Shown here: positions 1-32,716 of the stretch, one piece after another
Layout: each line of letters begins with the position of its first letter
Position numbering within the stretch: position 1 is the first letter of the stretch
IMG/VR virus record: IMGVR_UViG_3300028182_000001
Coordinates: 32,001 to 96,000 of that record
Length of the DNA: 64,000 nt
DNA from: a virus
Reading direction: 5' to 3' (one strand)
Notes under the pieces: model-generated
What the model was told of the DNA's origin: nothing
The model's input: the letters and a program-made list of their open reading frames with translations, nothing else
Databases searched by the model: none
Program-made: the position numbers and the translations under genes

Positions 1-255
1 CAACAAGTGTTAGACGCTCGAATTGATAAGGTTTTAGAAGAGGAAGGTGGCAAAGACCGTAAGGTTGATGACGCTGACCACGCTCGCATCGTAAAAAATG
101 CAGAGTCTCGCTACAAACCAAATCTTGTCGATCCTATTGGTATCCGTAAGGTTATCAATCAGATGGAAGAAGATATCAATTCGTTCGAGTTAGATGTGGA
201 TGCTTCATTATCCGAAATCAACGCTCGTACGGATATCGAGTTCGAAGTCAAATAG
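1..255 (+). CDS. 5'-truncated helical/coiled-coil protein of unknown function (C-terminal part only)
   Basis: Frame is open from base 1 (CAA CAA GTG TTA...) to TAG at 253-255. The C-terminus VDPIGIRKVINQMEEDINSFELDVDASLSEINARTDIEF is amphipathic-helical. The start lies outside the window. Confidence 0.8.
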   Translation, partial: QQVLDARIDKVLEEEGGKDRKVDDADHARIVKNAESRYKPNLVDPIGIRKVINQMEEDINSFELDVDASLSEINARTDIEFEVK

Positions 256-289
256 TAGGTTGACTCCCTCTCTCTGAGAGGGACAAGCC

Positions 290-652
290 TTTGCTAACAC
301 ACCGACACTTACCAACCAAATGCGTCCCTTACTAACGATATAGTGAGAACAAGATACTTTTGACAGATTAGTCAAAACTAAGCGGTAGCCAAATTGGGCT
401 AATACATATATGATAGTACCCCCGAGGAAGCGGGGTACAAACAGGTGTAAGAAGCTCAAAGCTAAGTGTTCAAAGGTTGACAAGTTAAAAGTTCTTATGC
501 GTTCAAAGGTAATAGTTGTACAGGTCAAAGAGGGCAAGATGAGTCTCCAAAAGAGAGACTAGCCCGTAAAGGTCGATAAAATCCACTGTAAAAGGTTTGC
601 GAGAGTTCATTTGTGGTCTCCGTAGGTGCCTAGTGGCTGGTGTGGTGGCAAA
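290..652 (+). ncRNA. Candidate large structured non-coding RNA with internal heptamer-repeat tract
   Basis: TTTGCTAACACACC (290-303) pairs with GGTGTGGTGGCAAA (639-652). Internal hairpins lie at 328-347, 358-377, 386-401, 416-438, 532-565 and 598-624. A 7-nt repeat tract spans 441-533. An intrinsic terminator follows, and there is no credible + strand ORF. Confidence 0.7.
441..533 (+). repeat. Degenerate 7-nt repeat array (AAAGTTC-like; G4 invariant, T6 in all but the last unit)
   Basis: ACAGGTG 441, GAAGCTC 451, AAAGCTA 458, AGTGTTC 465, AAAGGTT 472, CAAGTTA 481, AAAGTTC 488, TGCGTTC 498, AAAGGTA 505, ATAGTTG 512, ACAGGTC 520, AAAGAGG 527. Further copies at 568 and 591. Confidence 0.7.
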
Positions 653-662
653 TAATAGATGT

Positions 663-698
663 AAAAGACTCCTCGTCTCCTTTCGAGGGGTCTTTTTT
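663..698 (+). terminator. Intrinsic terminator
   Basis: AAAAGACTCCTCG-loop-CGAGGGGTCTTTT followed by a T run. Confidence 0.85.
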
Positions 699-710
699 CG
701 TATGTAGAAG

Positions 711-720
711 TCCTATATTA
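711..720 (+). promoter_or_regulatory. Putative late promoter (variant TCCTATATTA)
   Basis: Variant of the TGTTATATTA motif, in intergenic position just after a terminator and before the 755 CDS. Confidence 0.5.
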
Positions 721-754
721 CACTGGTAAGACCAAATGTGAAAGGTGGGACTCT

Positions 755-1594
755 ATGCTACAAGTTAAATCATTTAGTGGAGCAACACATGCAGAACAGA
801 TTCAAAACGCAATCAATGCTGCAAGTGTAAGCACAACAGACAAGACTGTACAACTAGAAGAGTTTAAAGACTACTACATCACTGCACCTATCATCATTAA
901 GAAGAACGTGGAACTACTATTTGGCTATGGTACAAAACTAGTTATTGGTAGTAACGTACGTGTACTAGAATTAGAGACGAACGCATCCGTGACAAATCCG
1001 TACATCGCTATTGACGATCCGTCATTTGATTCTGCGGTCTTCTACTTGGATGGTAAGAATAAGTTTTATAACACATGGAACAGAACATCTATTAAGAACG
1101 GTGTCATCGTTAACTGGGCAGGTTCTTACAAAGGCGTAGGTATCTCATGCTTTGCAGGTGGAACTGGTCACGAAGTATCATTCGTAAACTTCTTCGACAT
1201 CAAGATTAGTGGTCTACGAAGAGGGTTAGAGCTACGAGCAGCTAAACCATATACAGGTATGGCTTGGGTGAATGCGAATAGATTTAAAGACATCTCATTA
1301 GATGATTGTATTGAAATGATTGTAATTGAATCTTCTGAAACGATCCCGAACGAATGTAGTGGAAATATGTTCACTGGACTTCAAATACAACCTTCTGCTA
1401 TGACAACAACAGTACTACGTGTGAACGGGCAACAGAACCGATTCGAGGGTATGCTTTGGGATACTCACTTGATTTCAACTCCTAGTGCATTCGTTCACTT
1501 TACGAATACAAGCTCGTACAACAAGATAGATTTTAACGGATCGGTGCCGACTGCAAAAGTATCCGATGCAGGTGCATTCAATAAAGTACTTTAA
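755..1594 (+). CDS. Right-handed beta-helix (pectate-lyase-like) protein, possible virion-associated carbohydrate-binding protein or depolymerase
   Basis: N-terminal 'AEQIQNAINAA...TVQL...YYITAPIIIKKNVEL' pattern typical of pectate_lyase_3-like beta-helices; Asn/Ile-rich repeats; RBS AAAGGTGG. Confidence 0.6.
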   Translation: MLQVKSFSGATHAEQIQNAINAASVSTTDKTVQLEEFKDYYITAPIIIKKNVELLFGYGTKLVIGSNVRVLELETNASVTNPYIAIDDPSFDSAVFYLDGKNKFYNTWNRTSIKNGVIVNWAGSYKGVGISCFAGGTGHEVSFVNFFDIKISGLRRGLELRAAKPYTGMAWVNANRFKDISLDDCIEMIVIESSETIPNECSGNMFTGLQIQPSAMTTTVLRVNGQQNRFEGMLWDTHLISTPSAFVHFTNTSSYNKIDFNGSVPTAKVSDAGAFNKVL

Positions 1595-1623
1595 GAACTC
1601 CTTAGTGAGTTCTTTTTCTTTTT
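1593..1623 (+). terminator. Intrinsic terminator
   Basis: AAGAACTC-CTTAGT-GAGTTCTT followed by a T run. Confidence 0.8.
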
Positions 1624-1716
1624 GTAACGGTCTCTAGCACGGGTCGTATCTAACTACTGTGATATAATTAAGATACACATTACGTACTCCGTATTCACTA
1701 AATTACTACTATGTAG

Positions 1717-1726
1717 TCTTATATTA
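1717..1726 (+). promoter_or_regulatory. Putative late promoter (TCTTATATTA)
   Basis: One mismatch to TGTTATATTA; upstream of the portal operon. Confidence 0.55.
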
Positions 1727-1737
1727 TATCTAAGGGC

Positions 1738-2046
1738 GTGAGCTATGTGAGTTTATTCAGCAAAGATACGAAATGGAAGAAAGCTAAACAACTTCTGAAC
1801 CACAACTACACATGGTTGGAAGTCATTAGCTACTATAAGTCACTAGGTGGTACCAATGTGTCCGTTTACTCTGTTATCGAAGGTGATAAACGGTTGATTG
1901 TAGATTTAACCGATGATGACCAAGTGCTTCTAGTAAACAAGCATAACGAGTTAGTCAAAGATACTTATGATAACGTATTGAACAGTCGTAAAGTATTTGA
2001 GTACCACGAAGACAACTCACGAAACCCCGTTGAATACAAAACATAA
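1738..2046 (+). CDS. Hypothetical protein upstream of portal
   Basis: 102-aa ORF in operon position; start codon uncertain. Confidence 0.7.
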   Translation: MSYVSLFSKDTKWKKAKQLLNHNYTWLEVISYYKSLGGTNVSVYSVIEGDKRLIVDLTDDDQVLLVNKHNELVKDTYDNVLNSRKVFEYHEDNSRNPVEYKT

Positions 2047-2072
2047 CTTGTAAATAAACTGAGGTGACATGA

Positions 2073-3749
2073 ATGAGTGTATTAGACTGGTTCAATAATC
2101 GAAGTAATGATATGCCACCTGAGAATATCAGAAAGGTAGACGACAACCTTCTACTGGCTATCAAACACTTAGAAGATGAACAGATACAGAAAAGTAAATC
2201 AAGCGGCCAAGGACGGGCTAAGGCATATGAGGAACCTCTTTTAGGTAGTATGTCGATGAACCCTGATTACAAAGAAGCTCCTTCGTCAAGAGGGAATCAT
2301 AACTTACTAGAGACATTGAAGTTATGGTCAAGAAAGAATATTATACTTAACGCAATTATTAATACTCGTGTAAACCAAGTATCGTTATTCTGTACTCCTG
2401 CTAGACATAGTGATAGAGGGATCGGATACGAGGTTCGATTAAAGAACCCGTTAGATAAACCAACTTCACATGACATTGCGAAGATGGAACGTATTGAAGA
2501 CTTCCTGCAACATACAGGTAAGAGTCACGATGATTTCACGAGAGATAATCTCCGAGCATTTGTAAAGAAACTTGTTCGAGATAGATTGGTATATGACAAG
2601 ATTAACTTCGAGCTTATCTACGATACAAAAGGTGAGTTAAACCGATTCAAAGCGGTCGATGCGTCTACTATCTATGTAGCCGTAGATGAGAAAGGTCATG
2701 AACCTAAAGGAAAGAATGTTGCCAAGTACGTACAGATTCTAGAGCGTAGAAAGGTAGCAGAATTTAAAGCAAAAGAAATGGCTTGGGAGGTACACAATCC
2801 GAGAACCGATATTACAGTCGGTCGCTACGGATATTCCGAGTTAGAGGTTGCTATGAACCACTTACAGTACCACGAAAATACAGAGCTATTCAATGCTAGG
2901 TACTTCGCACAAGGTGGTACTACACGAGGTCTATTACATATCAAAACTGGACAAGACCAATCAAACCAAGCGTTACAGGCATTTAGACGTGAATGGACCG
3001 CAATGTTCAGTGGGATCAATGGAGCTTGGAAGATTCCTGTAATCTCTGCCGAGGATGTTAATTTCGTTAACATGACTCAATCATCTAGAGATATGGAATT
3101 TGAGAAGTGGTTGAACTATTTAATTAACGTATGTTGCTCTATCTATGCTATTGACCCATCGGAGATTAACTTCCCTAACCGTGGGGGAGCTACAGGTAGT
3201 AGCGGTAACTCTCTAAACGAAGGTAGCACGAAAGAGAAACATCGTAGCTCTAAAGATAAAGGGTTAGAGCCTTTACTGAAGTTTATCGAAGATGCAATCA
3301 ACAAATATATCGTTGCACAATTTGGGGATCGTTACTTATTTAGTTTCGTTGGTGGGGATGTTCAAACAGAACGTGAGATTATCGAGATACTAGCAGCTAA
3401 AGCAGAAATCGGTCTAACAATTAACGATGTTCGTAATGAACTAGGTTTACCTCCTATCGAAGGTGGAGACATCATTCTAAATGGTGTTCACGTACAACGT
3501 CTAGGTCAAATCATGCAAGAAGAGATGATGAAACAACAAATGGCTATGACACCTAACGGACAAGTTCCAGGTAACAAGAAAGAGCAGACACCGAAGGAAG
3601 AGAAGTCCCAAGCAGAGCAAAAAGGGATGAACGGTAACTCTAGTAATGTTAACGGTAAAGGAACCCACAACAAAGGGGTAGGCAAAGACGGACAGGTTAA
3701 AGGTGCGAAGAATACAAACGCTTCAAAACAAGGCGGTAAAGGTAAATAA
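2073..3749 (+). CDS. Portal protein
   Basis: Phage_portal-like motifs (GYSELE, NARYFAQGGTTRGLL, DMEFEKWLNYLIN, LTINDVRNELGLPPIEGGD); lies before protease and capsid. Confidence 0.93.
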   Translation: MSVLDWFNNRSNDMPPENIRKVDDNLLLAIKHLEDEQIQKSKSSGQGRAKAYEEPLLGSMSMNPDYKEAPSSRGNHNLLETLKLWSRKNIILNAIINTRVNQVSLFCTPARHSDRGIGYEVRLKNPLDKPTSHDIAKMERIEDFLQHTGKSHDDFTRDNLRAFVKKLVRDRLVYDKINFELIYDTKGELNRFKAVDASTIYVAVDEKGHEPKGKNVAKYVQILERRKVAEFKAKEMAWEVHNPRTDITVGRYGYSELEVAMNHLQYHENTELFNARYFAQGGTTRGLLHIKTGQDQSNQALQAFRREWTAMFSGINGAWKIPVISAEDVNFVNMTQSSRDMEFEKWLNYLINVCCSIYAIDPSEINFPNRGGATGSSGNSLNEGSTKEKHRSSKDKGLEPLLKFIEDAINKYIVAQFGDRYLFSFVGGDVQTEREIIEILAAKAEIGLTINDVRNELGLPPIEGGDIILNGVHVQRLGQIMQEEMMKQQMAMTPNGQVPGNKKEQTPKEEKSQAEQKGMNGNSSNVNGKGTHNKGVGKDGQVKGAKNTNASKQGGKGK

Positions 3750-31200: not shown

Positions 31201-32716
31201 ATACTCAACTAGTGGAACTCTTGATAAAATTTGGCTTTCTATTGACAACAACGATAGTGGTTGGGCTGAAGCGTATAGTCCTAGCAAGGAGGATATTAAT
31301 GCTTACTTCTTAGGTTGGAGAGTATGTAATGGTACCTTCGGAGGTCTGTATCCAGGCTCAGGAACTAAGCAGTGGTACCCAGTGGGAGACAAAGATTTAT
31401 CTCGTGCTACTGTAGCAGGTAACACGGCTCCAACAGAACCATCACCTTCAATCAGTGATAAGTCTATCAACTACTACCAAGTTGTCTACCAACTTGTGGA
31501 CGCAGTTCAGGAGACAGTTGATTTTGATGGTATACTAGAGTTATTGGCAAGTGACAACGTTGTAAGTACATACTTCCCTCAGTGGACTCCACCAATCACA
31601 AAAGGGACTATCAAGTATGGTACGAACTTAGCTACAGTCAACCAAGACACACGTTACATCATCCCGTCTATGGTAAAACGTATCTCTAATGCAGAGCAAA
31701 AGATTACAGATGACTCTATCACGAGTACCGTATTCAACTCAAGAGAATACACTCTAGCTCTGAAGAACAAAGCAAACGCTAGTGACTTAGGGAACCTTGC
31801 TACTAAAGACGAACTAGGGAACGTATCAGGTGCAGTAGATGGTAAGATTAAAGATGCTATGGACAAGCTAGACTTCACTCCGTACGCATTGAAATCTGAG
31901 TTGAAACAAACTGCTACAGACATCACGGCTAAGTTCTCTGCAACAGGCGGTATGAACTTACTTAAAAACTCTATCGGTTACAGTGACCTAGACTTTTGGA
32001 CTTTAACTACTGCTTATAAAGTAGAGACAATTGCAAACTCGGCACTAGACAATCTAGGGTTCGGTAAAGGTTTCTATTTCAAAGCCAATGGTCAAGAAAC
32101 AGGAATCCATCAAGACGTATCGGTTATCCCTGGTCAACCTTACACGTTAGGTTGGTACCTAAATAAGATGACGAAGGGTGCCGATACAAGCTACCGTTTT
32201 TGGATTCAAATTCAGGAGTACAACGGTACAGCTTGGGTTGTTAGTAACGGAAACCAAATAGCGGATAACAGTAATGTAACGACAAATGGTTTCGAAGCCC
32301 GTTATATGACGTTCACTCCTGTTAAAGACAAAGTTAGAATACGCTTTATCGGCTACCCACAAGTAGAAGCAATCGTATCAGGTATCATGCTTAACATCGG
32401 AGACGTTGCCCTACAATGGACTCTAGCTACAGGGGAGCTGTACAATACAAACATCCGTATGAACATTAACGGTATCCGTGTATCACAGATTGATGGTAAC
32501 GGAAGTGAAATTGGGTTCACTCAAATCACACCGTACGAGTTCGCAGGATATTACCAAAATAACGGTACATTCGAGAAAGTATTCTACTTGAATGGTGATG
32601 AAACCGTAACGAAGAAGCTTCGAGCAACAAATGAGATTACACTAGGGAACATCAAAATCCTGTCTATACAGAGTGCGAACTCCACAGGTTGGGCGTTCGT
32701 ACCTAACAACACTTAA
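28265..32716 (+). CDS. Large tail fibre / receptor-binding protein with several carbohydrate-binding-like domains
   Basis: 1483 aa; repeated 'GxNL[IL]...Y[TK]xS...W...F.T.....F..[KQ]LE.G..AT.W' galactose-binding-like modules. Confidence 0.8.
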   Translation: MAKYKATGQTTIYNMNDVLASLTPPPTPTEGALWLNAKDNQLYVYIKGSWVISADYKNWVNSKGDNLVSNGGGSLGNNTNFSVFEFDGSDSYSGGGSFKDSGAASQKLSDEIIPIDMSKTYKLSVWAKTNPNVGAKYYIGVFEHDMDGQPIYAEHHMYIKSTFSSLTQDLKNGDTVVYLDNVTNWLNTAAIHQRKLIFWDYVSNTGYKYQPLTYSRHVSIQDLWADGSINTTNKTITLKAPWNGGLVKSGTKLSQGSSGSGFKYIAASNVVIPGTWTNYSGTIGNLDNSGDAATNSFSWGTAGVKIGFLNNRDVTGSTVWYSNISFGLNVADQGQVDQISDSLDALGSDGKITRFERSLVRGYIADIIGKFLNPADSMPTLLDIDKDTYNAGKLYAIRRTARKIGLNLATSANYKPMGDAYSALVTYLSGLSPKPWDTSSTANINIDRTVWNTKWNDYYNRYALFEIEVQDRQKEYTEQKVGEMKDETIAAISTAGNHDTVNYTNPVTVKPPIATLGLPEFEGNHTDSWELPGQNLIPKTDTKVYGLGNFITNGSPLSIDNTKVYDGKPTIKIDTTTSIGGIKYNGFIPLKPNTTYTYSVMMNPTVSPVTSSSSPMHMWLSPDGINSGHLETIVKYSTTIPANTWTQVYSTFKTPNGLPVLYWCPFIYFSGSPVGAIVNVCNFKLELGDTANSWAPMPSEMWAGSGNRIRPVTNPLFTSGTDLTIWGKFYGDGTNNDKFYWNTNGVAIKEKKWMDVALNDKQNWAFSTNGLSTNGVNRILNSSCNNMQPYMFDNSSTGGTVGRATTSYAGDYLVLTSTDASDSFYQVGTYDMNLHMFTVGQTVTFSADVNCEIAGAYISVWHNDGTNWIENKGDANSVGSANTWQRLYKTFTIPSNAKGMFGRIYFPRGTAATGKKMNIRKLQFESGSTATPWVNTSLVKVTRVRADGFAYANANSNSLTVVKSDGTILDKDGQLHANTYSTSGTLDKIWLSIDNNDSGWAEAYSPSKEDINAYFLGWRVCNGTFGGLYPGSGTKQWYPVGDKDLSRATVAGNTAPTEPSPSISDKSINYYQVVYQLVDAVQETVDFDGILELLASDNVVSTYFPQWTPPITKGTIKYGTNLATVNQDTRYIIPSMVKRISNAEQKITDDSITSTVFNSREYTLALKNKANASDLGNLATKDELGNVSGAVDGKIKDAMDKLDFTPYALKSELKQTATDITAKFSATGGMNLLKNSIGYSDLDFWTLTTAYKVETIANSALDNLGFGKGFYFKANGQETGIHQDVSVIPGQPYTLGWYLNKMTKGADTSYRFWIQIQEYNGTAWVVSNGNQIADNSNVTTNGFEARYMTFTPVKDKVRIRFIGYPQVEAIVSGIMLNIGDVALQWTLATGELYNTNIRMNINGIRVSQIDGNGSEIGFTQITPYEFAGYYQNNGTFEKVFYLNGDETVTKKLRATNEITLGNIKILSIQSANSTGWAFVPNNT

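Follow-up and report, generated by a model that had tools for sequence, protein, structure and literature searches.

What is a row of 7-nt repeats doing in a part of a phage genome that is poor in open reading frames (ORFs)? The question is posed by a 64,000-nt stretch of viral DNA (positions 32,001 to 96,000 of IMG/VR record IMGVR_UViG_3300028182_000001; hereafter the window), in which an ORF-poor gap of 499 nt (window 256–754) harbours a tract of about 12 heptads. Here we describe this tract as the single-stranded arm of a pseudoknotted noncoding RNA (ncRNA) of ~365 nt, which is encoded on the + strand at 290–652 and is coupled, strictly or nearly so, to the gene for a 209-residue protein directly upstream, even among distantly related phages. 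The source record is a complete virus genome of 158,403 bp with direct terminal repeats, belonging to a Bacillus cereus-group myophage (Herelleviridae/Bastillevirinae). Hobo/BM15 and Bcp1 are the nearest DNA relatives of the window (~90% identity).

Read with T as the first base of the unit, the tract runs from 449 as AAGAAGC, TCAAAGC, TAAGTGT, TCAAAGG, TTGACAAG, TTAAAAG and TTCTTAT and, after a 4-nt insert (GCGT), continues to 538 as TCAAAGG, TAATAGT, TGTACAGG, TCAAAGA and GGGCAAG. It thus comprises 12 units, two of them 8-mers, and its spacing is jittered. The strong units are UCAAAG or UUAAAAG, and a special unit, UUCUUAU (492–498), is common to many clades. All 14 heptamers that an initial annotation of this DNA had listed are present where it placed them, and its counts (G invariant at unit position 4, T at position 6 in 13 of 14) are correct, though partly by construction, because the phase had been reset three times (gaps of 2, 3 and 1 nt). 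The units that it listed at 441, 568 and 591 are there as well, but they do not share one register with the tract; beyond 451–533 the array extends by only two degenerate units, up to a conserved motif at 573–584.

Taken alone, the window gave a mixed answer on periodicity. In a plain autocorrelation, lag 7 reached z = 1.5–2.5, the strongest lags were 15 (z = 3.2) and 23–24 (z = 3.1), and troughs fell at lags 4, 11–13, 19–20 and 26–28; the family-wise p was ~0.02 for 441–540 and 0.07–0.10 for the two other ranges tested. A Fourier scan of the window found no significant power at a period of 7–7.5 nt (z = 0.3), the best period being 8.0. The jittered spacing accounts for this blurring of the period in the window. 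A motif-specific, post hoc test was clearly positive: the tract holds 16 G-N-T motifs where 8.6 are expected (p = 0.001), and six pairs of them lie exactly 7 nt apart compared with 0.46 ± 0.68 expected, a roughly 13-fold excess that was reached in 0 of 2000 shuffles.

Decisive support for the repeats being real comes from the relatives, in which the period claimed for the window is conserved. At the equivalent place, 24 of 37 distinct homologous RNAs have a significant period of 7–7.5 nt (z = 2.5–10), and chained motif spacings in these relatives are 7 nt in 87 cases, 8 nt in 20 and 6 nt in 11. The arrays of some members are strictly regular; that of L040, for instance, has seven contiguous T-Y-A-A-type units followed by UCUUAUG. 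The heptamer itself is specific to the clade: UCAAAG as in the window, YUUAAUG in a Clostridial clade and NNGCAAC in a GC-rich clade, with further unit types in L101 (UAGUUAC) and L068 (UUAACGG and UCAACGU). From Bacillus phages to T5 the tract is conserved and occupies an equivalent position in the fold, and an nhmmer search with the Bacillus profile matched distant members mainly in the tract.

Conservation of the tract is not accompanied by conserved pairing. Within the Bacillus clade, its mean pairwise identity is 0.82 and 56 of 90 columns are invariant, compared with an identity of 0.87–0.92 in the structural core and 0.49 in the variable hairpins. RNAalifold, run on 18 sequences, detected no covarying helices in the tract and left it open apart from one 4-bp mini-hairpin. 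The tract alone folds no better than its shuffles (z = +0.53), and its predicted unpaired probability is slightly higher than that of the remaining RNA in 30 of 37 RNAs (p = 4e-5). Selection acts on the primary sequence and register of the tract and not on its pairing, a pattern that marks the tract as a surface contacted by another component.

The surrounding RNA is held together by helices that covary (P1, P2, P3 and PK), which agrees with the earlier placement of the tract inside an ncRNA. We aligned the gap from 19 phages (Caeruleovirus, Tsarbombavirus) and applied RNAalifold and a pair count to 18 of the sequences over window 290–652. Near-invariant blocks alternate with hairpins that change in sequence and length and retain their pairing. 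Among these 18 Bacillus-phage sequences, 94% of cells are paired, compared with 34–45% when the partners are slid, and double changes occur at 14 pairs, a number that 0 of 500 shuffles reached. Four of the pairs with double changes are in hairpin H2 of the variable domain, where mean identity is 0.49. Because several invariant pairs are G-U, the structure is valid only as RNA of the + strand. The fold is a pseudoknot, because the helix that we call PK crosses P2 and P3, which lie inside the closing helix P1 (Table 1).

The link to the upstream protein that the initial annotation suspected holds, as gene–RNA coupling, across very distant phages. By tblastn, the partner protein occurs in 738 phage records, which include T5-like Salmonella and Escherichia phages (T5.085), phages of Vibrio, Pseudomonas, Klebsiella, Erwinia and Lactococcus, Bacillus phage G and Lysinibacillus phage LC76P1. 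The RNA lies directly 3′ of the protein gene in 19 Bacillus phages, T5, phage G and LC76P1. In the last three, the gene is followed by a gap of 440–520 nt that matches the window in its long closing helix, a run of YUNAAG-type units, UUCUUAU and the motif UCGAUAAAAUCC. Across 82 downstream stretches (79 viral-contig loci plus T5, phage G and LC76P1), P1 was seen in ~55 with a simple detector that missed about one-third of the viral-contig loci. P1 measures 12–21 bp and spans 255–430 nt; its sequence is wholly different in each clade, and its inner end is always 5′-CG/UG-3′. At least 12 sequence versions of the PK helix (AAAU-CCNNNN with NNNNGG-CUG) were seen, with a constant spacing of 45–50 nt, or 72–73 nt in one clade that is rich in GC. 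Of 37 distinct RNAs, 36 contain a P2-like helix of 7 bp or more; individually these helices are weak, and 11 RNAs reach p ≤ 0.05 compared with ~2 expected. The window shows every element by which we define the family: P1 with the inner CG/UG, the AAAUCC...GGCUG PK helix, a heptad tract placed after the variable hairpins and before that motif, and the place 3′ of the gene.

The module also occurs in bacterial assemblies, where the RNA is present in 11 of 14 loci that carry it (Clostridia metagenome-assembled genomes, a Clostridium mediterraneense chromosome, Sarcina, a Rossellomorea megaplasmid and a Sericytochromatia metagenome-assembled genome). In most loci tRNA genes flank the module, which lies inside or beside tRNA arrays in elements of Bacillus, Lysinibacillus and Clostridia, in phage G and in T5-like phages, and the RNA is retained where the downstream gene differs or is missing.

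Several loci contain other RNA elements near the module. In L088 (2187–2300) and L120, the variable 5′ domain carries an apparent circularly permuted tRNA-like insert (T-arm, then acceptor/D-arm), which in L088 scored below threshold against the models for YrlA (36.7 bits) and tRNA (28.4 bits). L088 also has a tmRNA-like gene (1034–1441; RF00023, 45.1 bits vs. a gathering score of 47, E = 1e-14), which immediately precedes the partner gene. A skipping-rope RNA lies between protein gene and RNA in L076 (2125–2202) and upstream of the protein gene in L073 and L070 (1151–1238), and RAGATH-36 is found just downstream of the RNA in L092 (2562–2710).

The partner protein belongs to PHROG 1491, which carries the database label 'tail fiber', and is a homologue of T5.085. 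An AlphaFold2 model built from 41 diverse sequences (predicted local distance difference test, pLDDT, 90) is compact, with long helices and a small four-stranded sheet. The initial annotation expected the upstream protein to be an oligomeric ring or filament that takes up one heptamer per subunit. Self-association is supported in that a homodimer is predicted, the symmetric dimer being the only assembly modelled: the prediction scored 0.71, the best of three controls scored 0.30, and the dimer runs agreed in at least 99% of contacts with a partner pLDDT of at least 91. This mark separates proteins solved as pairs of one chain, of which 20 of 30 attain it, from those solved as single chains (1 of 23); the counts hold only roughly here because our own alignment was used. 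The predicted dimer contacts extend along the long helices and take in the residues that are best conserved.

Database searches placed this protein near nothing of known function. Pfam returned only insignificant matches (DUF7867, C2c1 WED-II), a sequence search of the PDB gave nothing below E = 0.01, and the ESM Atlas and BFVD gave only unnamed viral clusters and uncharacterised phage proteins, respectively. The only standout fold match was 3KDQ, an uncharacterised Corynebacterium diphtheriae protein (Z = 11.4, root-mean-square deviation 7.1, 151 residues; Foldseek E = 0.002); F-BAR-like matches at Z ~7 were set aside as within the noise for helical models. A CRISPRi-ART screen of T5 (PMC11879866, supplementary files 8 and 16) gives T5.085, entered there under PHROG 1491, the score 'Not Fit', and the gene is therefore dispensable on the laboratory host. 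We reject the 'tail fiber' label: the protein is a compact helical bundle without fibre-like matches, its T5 member is 'Not Fit', and the gene lies in tRNA islands rather than tail modules.

Heptad-like units also appear in front of the protein gene. Leaders of the protein genes have excess identity at lags 7–8 and 13–14 (z = 2.4–3.4), and control leaders have none. In several leaders, for example those of T5, L100, L108 and Hobo, three to four such units stand just before the ribosome-binding site, with a similar run in L123. Those of Hobo (L001:2395–2415; TTTAAAA, TTGATAA and TTTAATA) directly precede the Shine-Dalgarno sequence of the partner gene; the equivalent site in the genome of the window's phage is ~60 nt before the gene starts and falls outside the window. 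These leader sequences give a weak hint that the protein may regulate itself through its own leader.

We propose that the heptads serve the partner protein as a periodic docking track, a reading to which we assign a probability of about 0.5. The structured core, made of P1, P2, P3 and the PK knot, would hold out the unpaired tract, and the protein would bind along it as dimers, in a register of 7 nt or of 14–15 nt, to give a ribonucleoprotein particle whose size is set. In this phage, strong (UCAAAG) and weak units alternate in the tract and the autocorrelation has a signal at lag 15, which would agree with one dimer for every two units. The protein may also sense the like units in its own mRNA leader. 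Such a particle would have an accessory role tied to the phage tRNA island rather than a role in virion structure, and the 'Not Fit' score of T5.085 fits an accessory role.

A number of observations weigh against a docking track. The most conserved residues of the protein (76–79 and 160–171) fall in the predicted dimer interface rather than on any clearly basic face. With a median pI of 5.7 and a net charge of about −2, the family is mildly acidic, which is unusual for an RNA-coating protein, and we recognised no RNA-binding domain in the partner. The leader signal is weak, the spacing of the window's own tract is irregular, and the adjacency of the genes is by itself no proof of physical association. 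Finally, ROOL and GOLLD, which are also large phage RNAs near tRNA islands, work without a protein (PMC12286853).

This last point leads to an alternative in which the RNA assembles by itself: the heptads would make tertiary or intermolecular RNA contacts in a homo-oligomer resembling the ROOL and GOLLD nanocages, and the protein would be accessory. The RNA described here shares with ROOL and GOLLD the niche of phages and prophages, often near tRNA islands (PMC12286853), and its core is large and pseudoknotted; tertiary contacts, moreover, would also conserve sequence without Watson-Crick covariation. We nevertheless regard RNA-only assembly as quite unlikely. Neither ROOL nor GOLLD comes with a protein gene of its own, in contrast to the near-obligate coupling seen here, no similarity to either was found in sequence or model, and a heptamer that shifts by clade at constant period suggests a reader that co-evolves with the repeats. 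Explanations that involve no RNA function at all (a chance A-rich low-complexity run, DNA iterons of an origin or packaging site, a small ORF, or a cis leader of the tail-spike gene) are largely refuted. The window's Fourier signal is indeed not significant, and a 50-residue ORF does cover the tract (410–562) and is annotated in the relative Kioshi. This frame, however, breaks after 9–26 codons in most relatives, and the G-U pairs and covariation are specific to one strand. The tract is conserved as far afield as T5, in an equivalent position of the fold, and the RNA persists in genomes without the tail-spike gene, from which it is separated by a terminator.

The remaining alternatives make the tract a decoy. 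The initial annotation offered a sponge for a host RNA-binding protein as its second choice; such a sponge could not target a host factor confined to one lineage, since Gram-positive as well as Gram-negative hosts are represented in the family. A clade-specific version of the idea takes as its target the host's HutP antiterminator, which a NAG-N4 register might titrate in B. cereus-group phages only. HutP reads UAG-N4-UAG-N4-UAG, with a period of 7, at two XAG-rich sites (PMC2425495), and in the register of the initial annotation NAG stands at the same place in 9 of 11 phased units. Three intact NAG units never occur in one uninterrupted register, however, the runs being of two at most; the family reaches phages of E. 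coli, Vibrio and Pseudomonas, hosts that lack HutP, and includes heptamers without AG; and the RNA travels with its own protein gene. We consider a HutP sponge very improbable. A decoy directed at tRNAs has more in its favour, although we still think it unlikely. The heptads would capture tRNA loops or bait a tRNA-acting host factor, for example a defence anticodon nuclease, and the protein would be a chaperone or effector rather than the reader of the repeats. Nearly every locus has the module within or beside an array of tRNA genes, a 7-nt unit has the length of an anticodon loop or T-loop, and in this phage GUCAAAG, UUCAAAG and CUCAAAG are complementary over 6–7 nt to the anticodon loop (CUUUGAC) of a tRNA-Gln(UUG) that the phage itself encodes. 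The permuted tRNA-like insert occupies the variable domain in L088 and L120, and a T5 gene that is dispensable on the laboratory host is what would be expected of counter-defence. On the other hand, no register brings YUUAAUG or NNGCAAC units into agreement with a canonical anticodon loop (U33, purine 37), and heptamers without stems provide no stem-loop mimicry. Mimicry of the T-loop, whose heptamer UUCAAAN resembles, was rejected because it does not hold for the units of other clades.

The docking track and a tRNA target could also be combined. On this rather improbable view, the pair is an undescribed, widespread phage ribonucleoprotein that acts on tRNAs, and its row of 7-nt sites would engage tRNA loops or tRNA-targeting host nucleases to protect, sort or sequester tRNAs. 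If this were true, it would be a new class of counter-defence or translation-control particle in T5-like coliphages, Bacillus myophages, phage G and Clostridia prophages.

In the window's phage, eleven tRNA genes lie directly upstream of the 209-residue protein gene, the last ending 44 nt before its start. A scan of window 1–2200 for sigma-70-like promoters found nothing above chance. The RNA is probably transcribed as part of the tRNA operon, and the terminator that follows P1 is probably the 3′ end of the primary transcript. The hairpin just after the stop codon is probably an element of processing or stability and not a terminator. It is conserved, GC-rich and only 6 nt before P1, and may mark a processing site that splits the mRNA from the RNA. 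Among soil metatranscriptomes, 24 runs contain the stretch, only as assembled contigs; four gave flat depths per contig and no ends, and so define neither expression nor transcript boundaries. In run X8, a contig over 115–1063 has about twice the depth of its neighbours, in a measure (contig depth) that cannot rank expression.

Table 1. Features of the RNA and the adjoining genes, in window coordinates unless marked as record coordinates.
Feature	Position	Strand	Remarks
Partner protein gene, last 84 codons	1–255	+	stop at 255
Partner protein gene, full length (209 aa)	G000:C1:31626–32255 (record coordinates)	+	
Post-stop hairpin	265–283	+	6-bp stem, 7-nt loop, without U-tract; stem retained through sequence change in relatives
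P1, closing helix	290–304 with 638–652	+	inner end 5′-CG conserved family-wide
P1, 3′ strand	638–652	+	starts UG; conserved GGC just before
P2	307–312 with 622–627	+	P2/P3 double changes at alignment columns 19/359 and 31/343
P3	315–322 with 608–617	+	P2/P3 double changes at alignment columns 19/359 and 31/343
Hairpin H1	328–347	+	7 bp, conserved
Variable domain	357–438 (H2 357–377, H3 386–401, H4 416–438)	+	sequence and length vary, pairing stays
Heptad-repeat tract, ~12 units	449–538	+	strong units UCAAAG or UUAAAAG
Unit starts in the tract	449, 456, 463, 470, 477 (8-mer), 485, 492, [insert 499–502], 503, 510, 517 (8-mer), 525, 532		
Hairpin H5	532–565 (542–547 with 555–560)	+	closed by GGGC/GCCC (532–535 with 562–565); variable in relatives
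Family-wide motif UCGAUAAAAUCC	573–588	+	leads into PK 5′ strand CCACUG (583–588)
PK helix	583–588 (CCACUG) with 631–636 (UAGUGG)	+	
Intrinsic terminator	667–698	+	9-bp GC-rich stem and six T
'Tail spike' gene (279 aa)	755–1594		downstream of gap

Beyond the gap, the 'tail spike' gene is followed by a 102-residue protein gene and then by the portal gene. The 'tail spike' gene (755–1594) looks like a cassette. In Xoo-sp15, CM1, Thurquoise, Deep Blue and BCP78, which lack it, the terminator of the RNA is joined directly to a promoter-like sequence of the extended −10 type, TGTGATATAAT, which in the window lies at ~1665 (1655–1685) and precedes the gene for the 102-residue protein. The host assignment of one of these records (MN364664.1, locus L005, 'Xanthomonas phage Xoo-sp15', flagged UNVERIFIED_ORG) is probably wrong, because its sequence is ~90% identical to Bacillus Caeruleovirus phages across the locus.

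How does this module compare with what is already catalogued? The window has no match on the RNA at the gathering score in Rfam 15, whose families include ROOL, GOLLD, RAGATH-27, tmRNA, RNase P, 6S and Y RNA; with E allowed up to 10 over 200–800, it matches only SpF11 (27 bits vs. 54, on the terminator hairpin) and one other model at 9 bits. In 58 related loci, Rfam recognised flanking tRNAs, skipping-rope, RAGATH-36 and BsrG only, and never the RNA itself. RAGATH-27 (RF03100) gave no match in window 200–800 (E ≤ 10), in 18 loci (E ≤ 0.5) or in 40 loci at the gathering score. We found no Rfam model, Pfam family, solved structure of known function or paper in the library searched for the RNA, the protein or the pair. 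A module that extends from Bacillus phages to the model coliphage T5 and matches no catalogued family suggests that a part of phage biology has been overlooked. ROOL and GOLLD had already shown that phage tRNA islands contain large RNAs with no function assigned, and to these the new pair adds a dedicated protein and a regular heptad array. The regular, single-stranded array offers a direct experimental handle, and T5, which carries the module and can do without it, makes the question accessible at once in a standard laboratory phage. The name 'tail fiber protein', which many of the 738 matching phage records give to the gene, is a mis-annotation that is corrected here.

The initial annotation invoked TRAP and type III antitoxins, but the features that define either are missing. 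TRAP is an 11-mer ring of β-sandwich subunits that binds 11 GAG/UAG triplets, one repeat per subunit, with spacers of 2–3 nt and hence a period of 5–6 nt in a single-stranded cis leader. The heptads resemble its target in being repeats on single-stranded RNA, but they are 7–8 nt apart and belong to a structured scaffold, which TRAP's target lacks, and the partner is helical rather than a β-sandwich and has no relation to TRAP in sequence or fold. In type III systems, the ToxI antitoxin consists of tandem identical 36-nt (~34–36) units that precede the toxin gene and are cut by the toxin ToxN. Our pair, likewise a repeat-bearing, phage-related RNA beside a small protein gene, instead has degenerate 7-nt units inside a single folded RNA, located after the gene, and its protein does not have a ToxN-like fold.

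ROOL and GOLLD are phage and prophage RNAs often found near tRNA islands, and tRNAs sometimes occur within GOLLD linkers (PMC12286853). The RNA described here is similarly large, pseudoknotted and located in phages or prophages near tRNA islands, and some members have a tRNA-like element in the variable region. It is smaller, however (~260–400 nt, compared with ~580 to >800 nt), and matches neither Rfam model, and ROOL and GOLLD are RNA-only cages with neither a dedicated protein gene nor a heptad array.

HutP shows a parallel in its mode of recognition: in B. subtilis, an oligomer of identical subunits reads a purine motif, UAG-N4, in unpaired hut RNA (PMC2425495). As in hut, we see unpaired RNA, a short purine motif every 7 nt and two repeat blocks. 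HutP is, however, an α/β hexamer that requires histidine and Mg2+, whereas the partner protein is an unrelated helical protein predicted to form a dimer; HutP is not among its fold matches, and no Pfam match was significant. Nor does a HutP-type site (three NAG with exactly 4-nt spacers, twice) occur in the window, and the units of other clades lack AG, so the unit is not fixed to NAG across the family. HutP binds 3 + 3 repeats in a cis mRNA leader, in contrast to ~12 units in a free-standing, knotted RNA of 365 nt. We regard the pair as lying outside the known kinds of system, while the principle of a periodic, single-stranded, protein-binding array is itself a known one, exemplified by HutP and TRAP.

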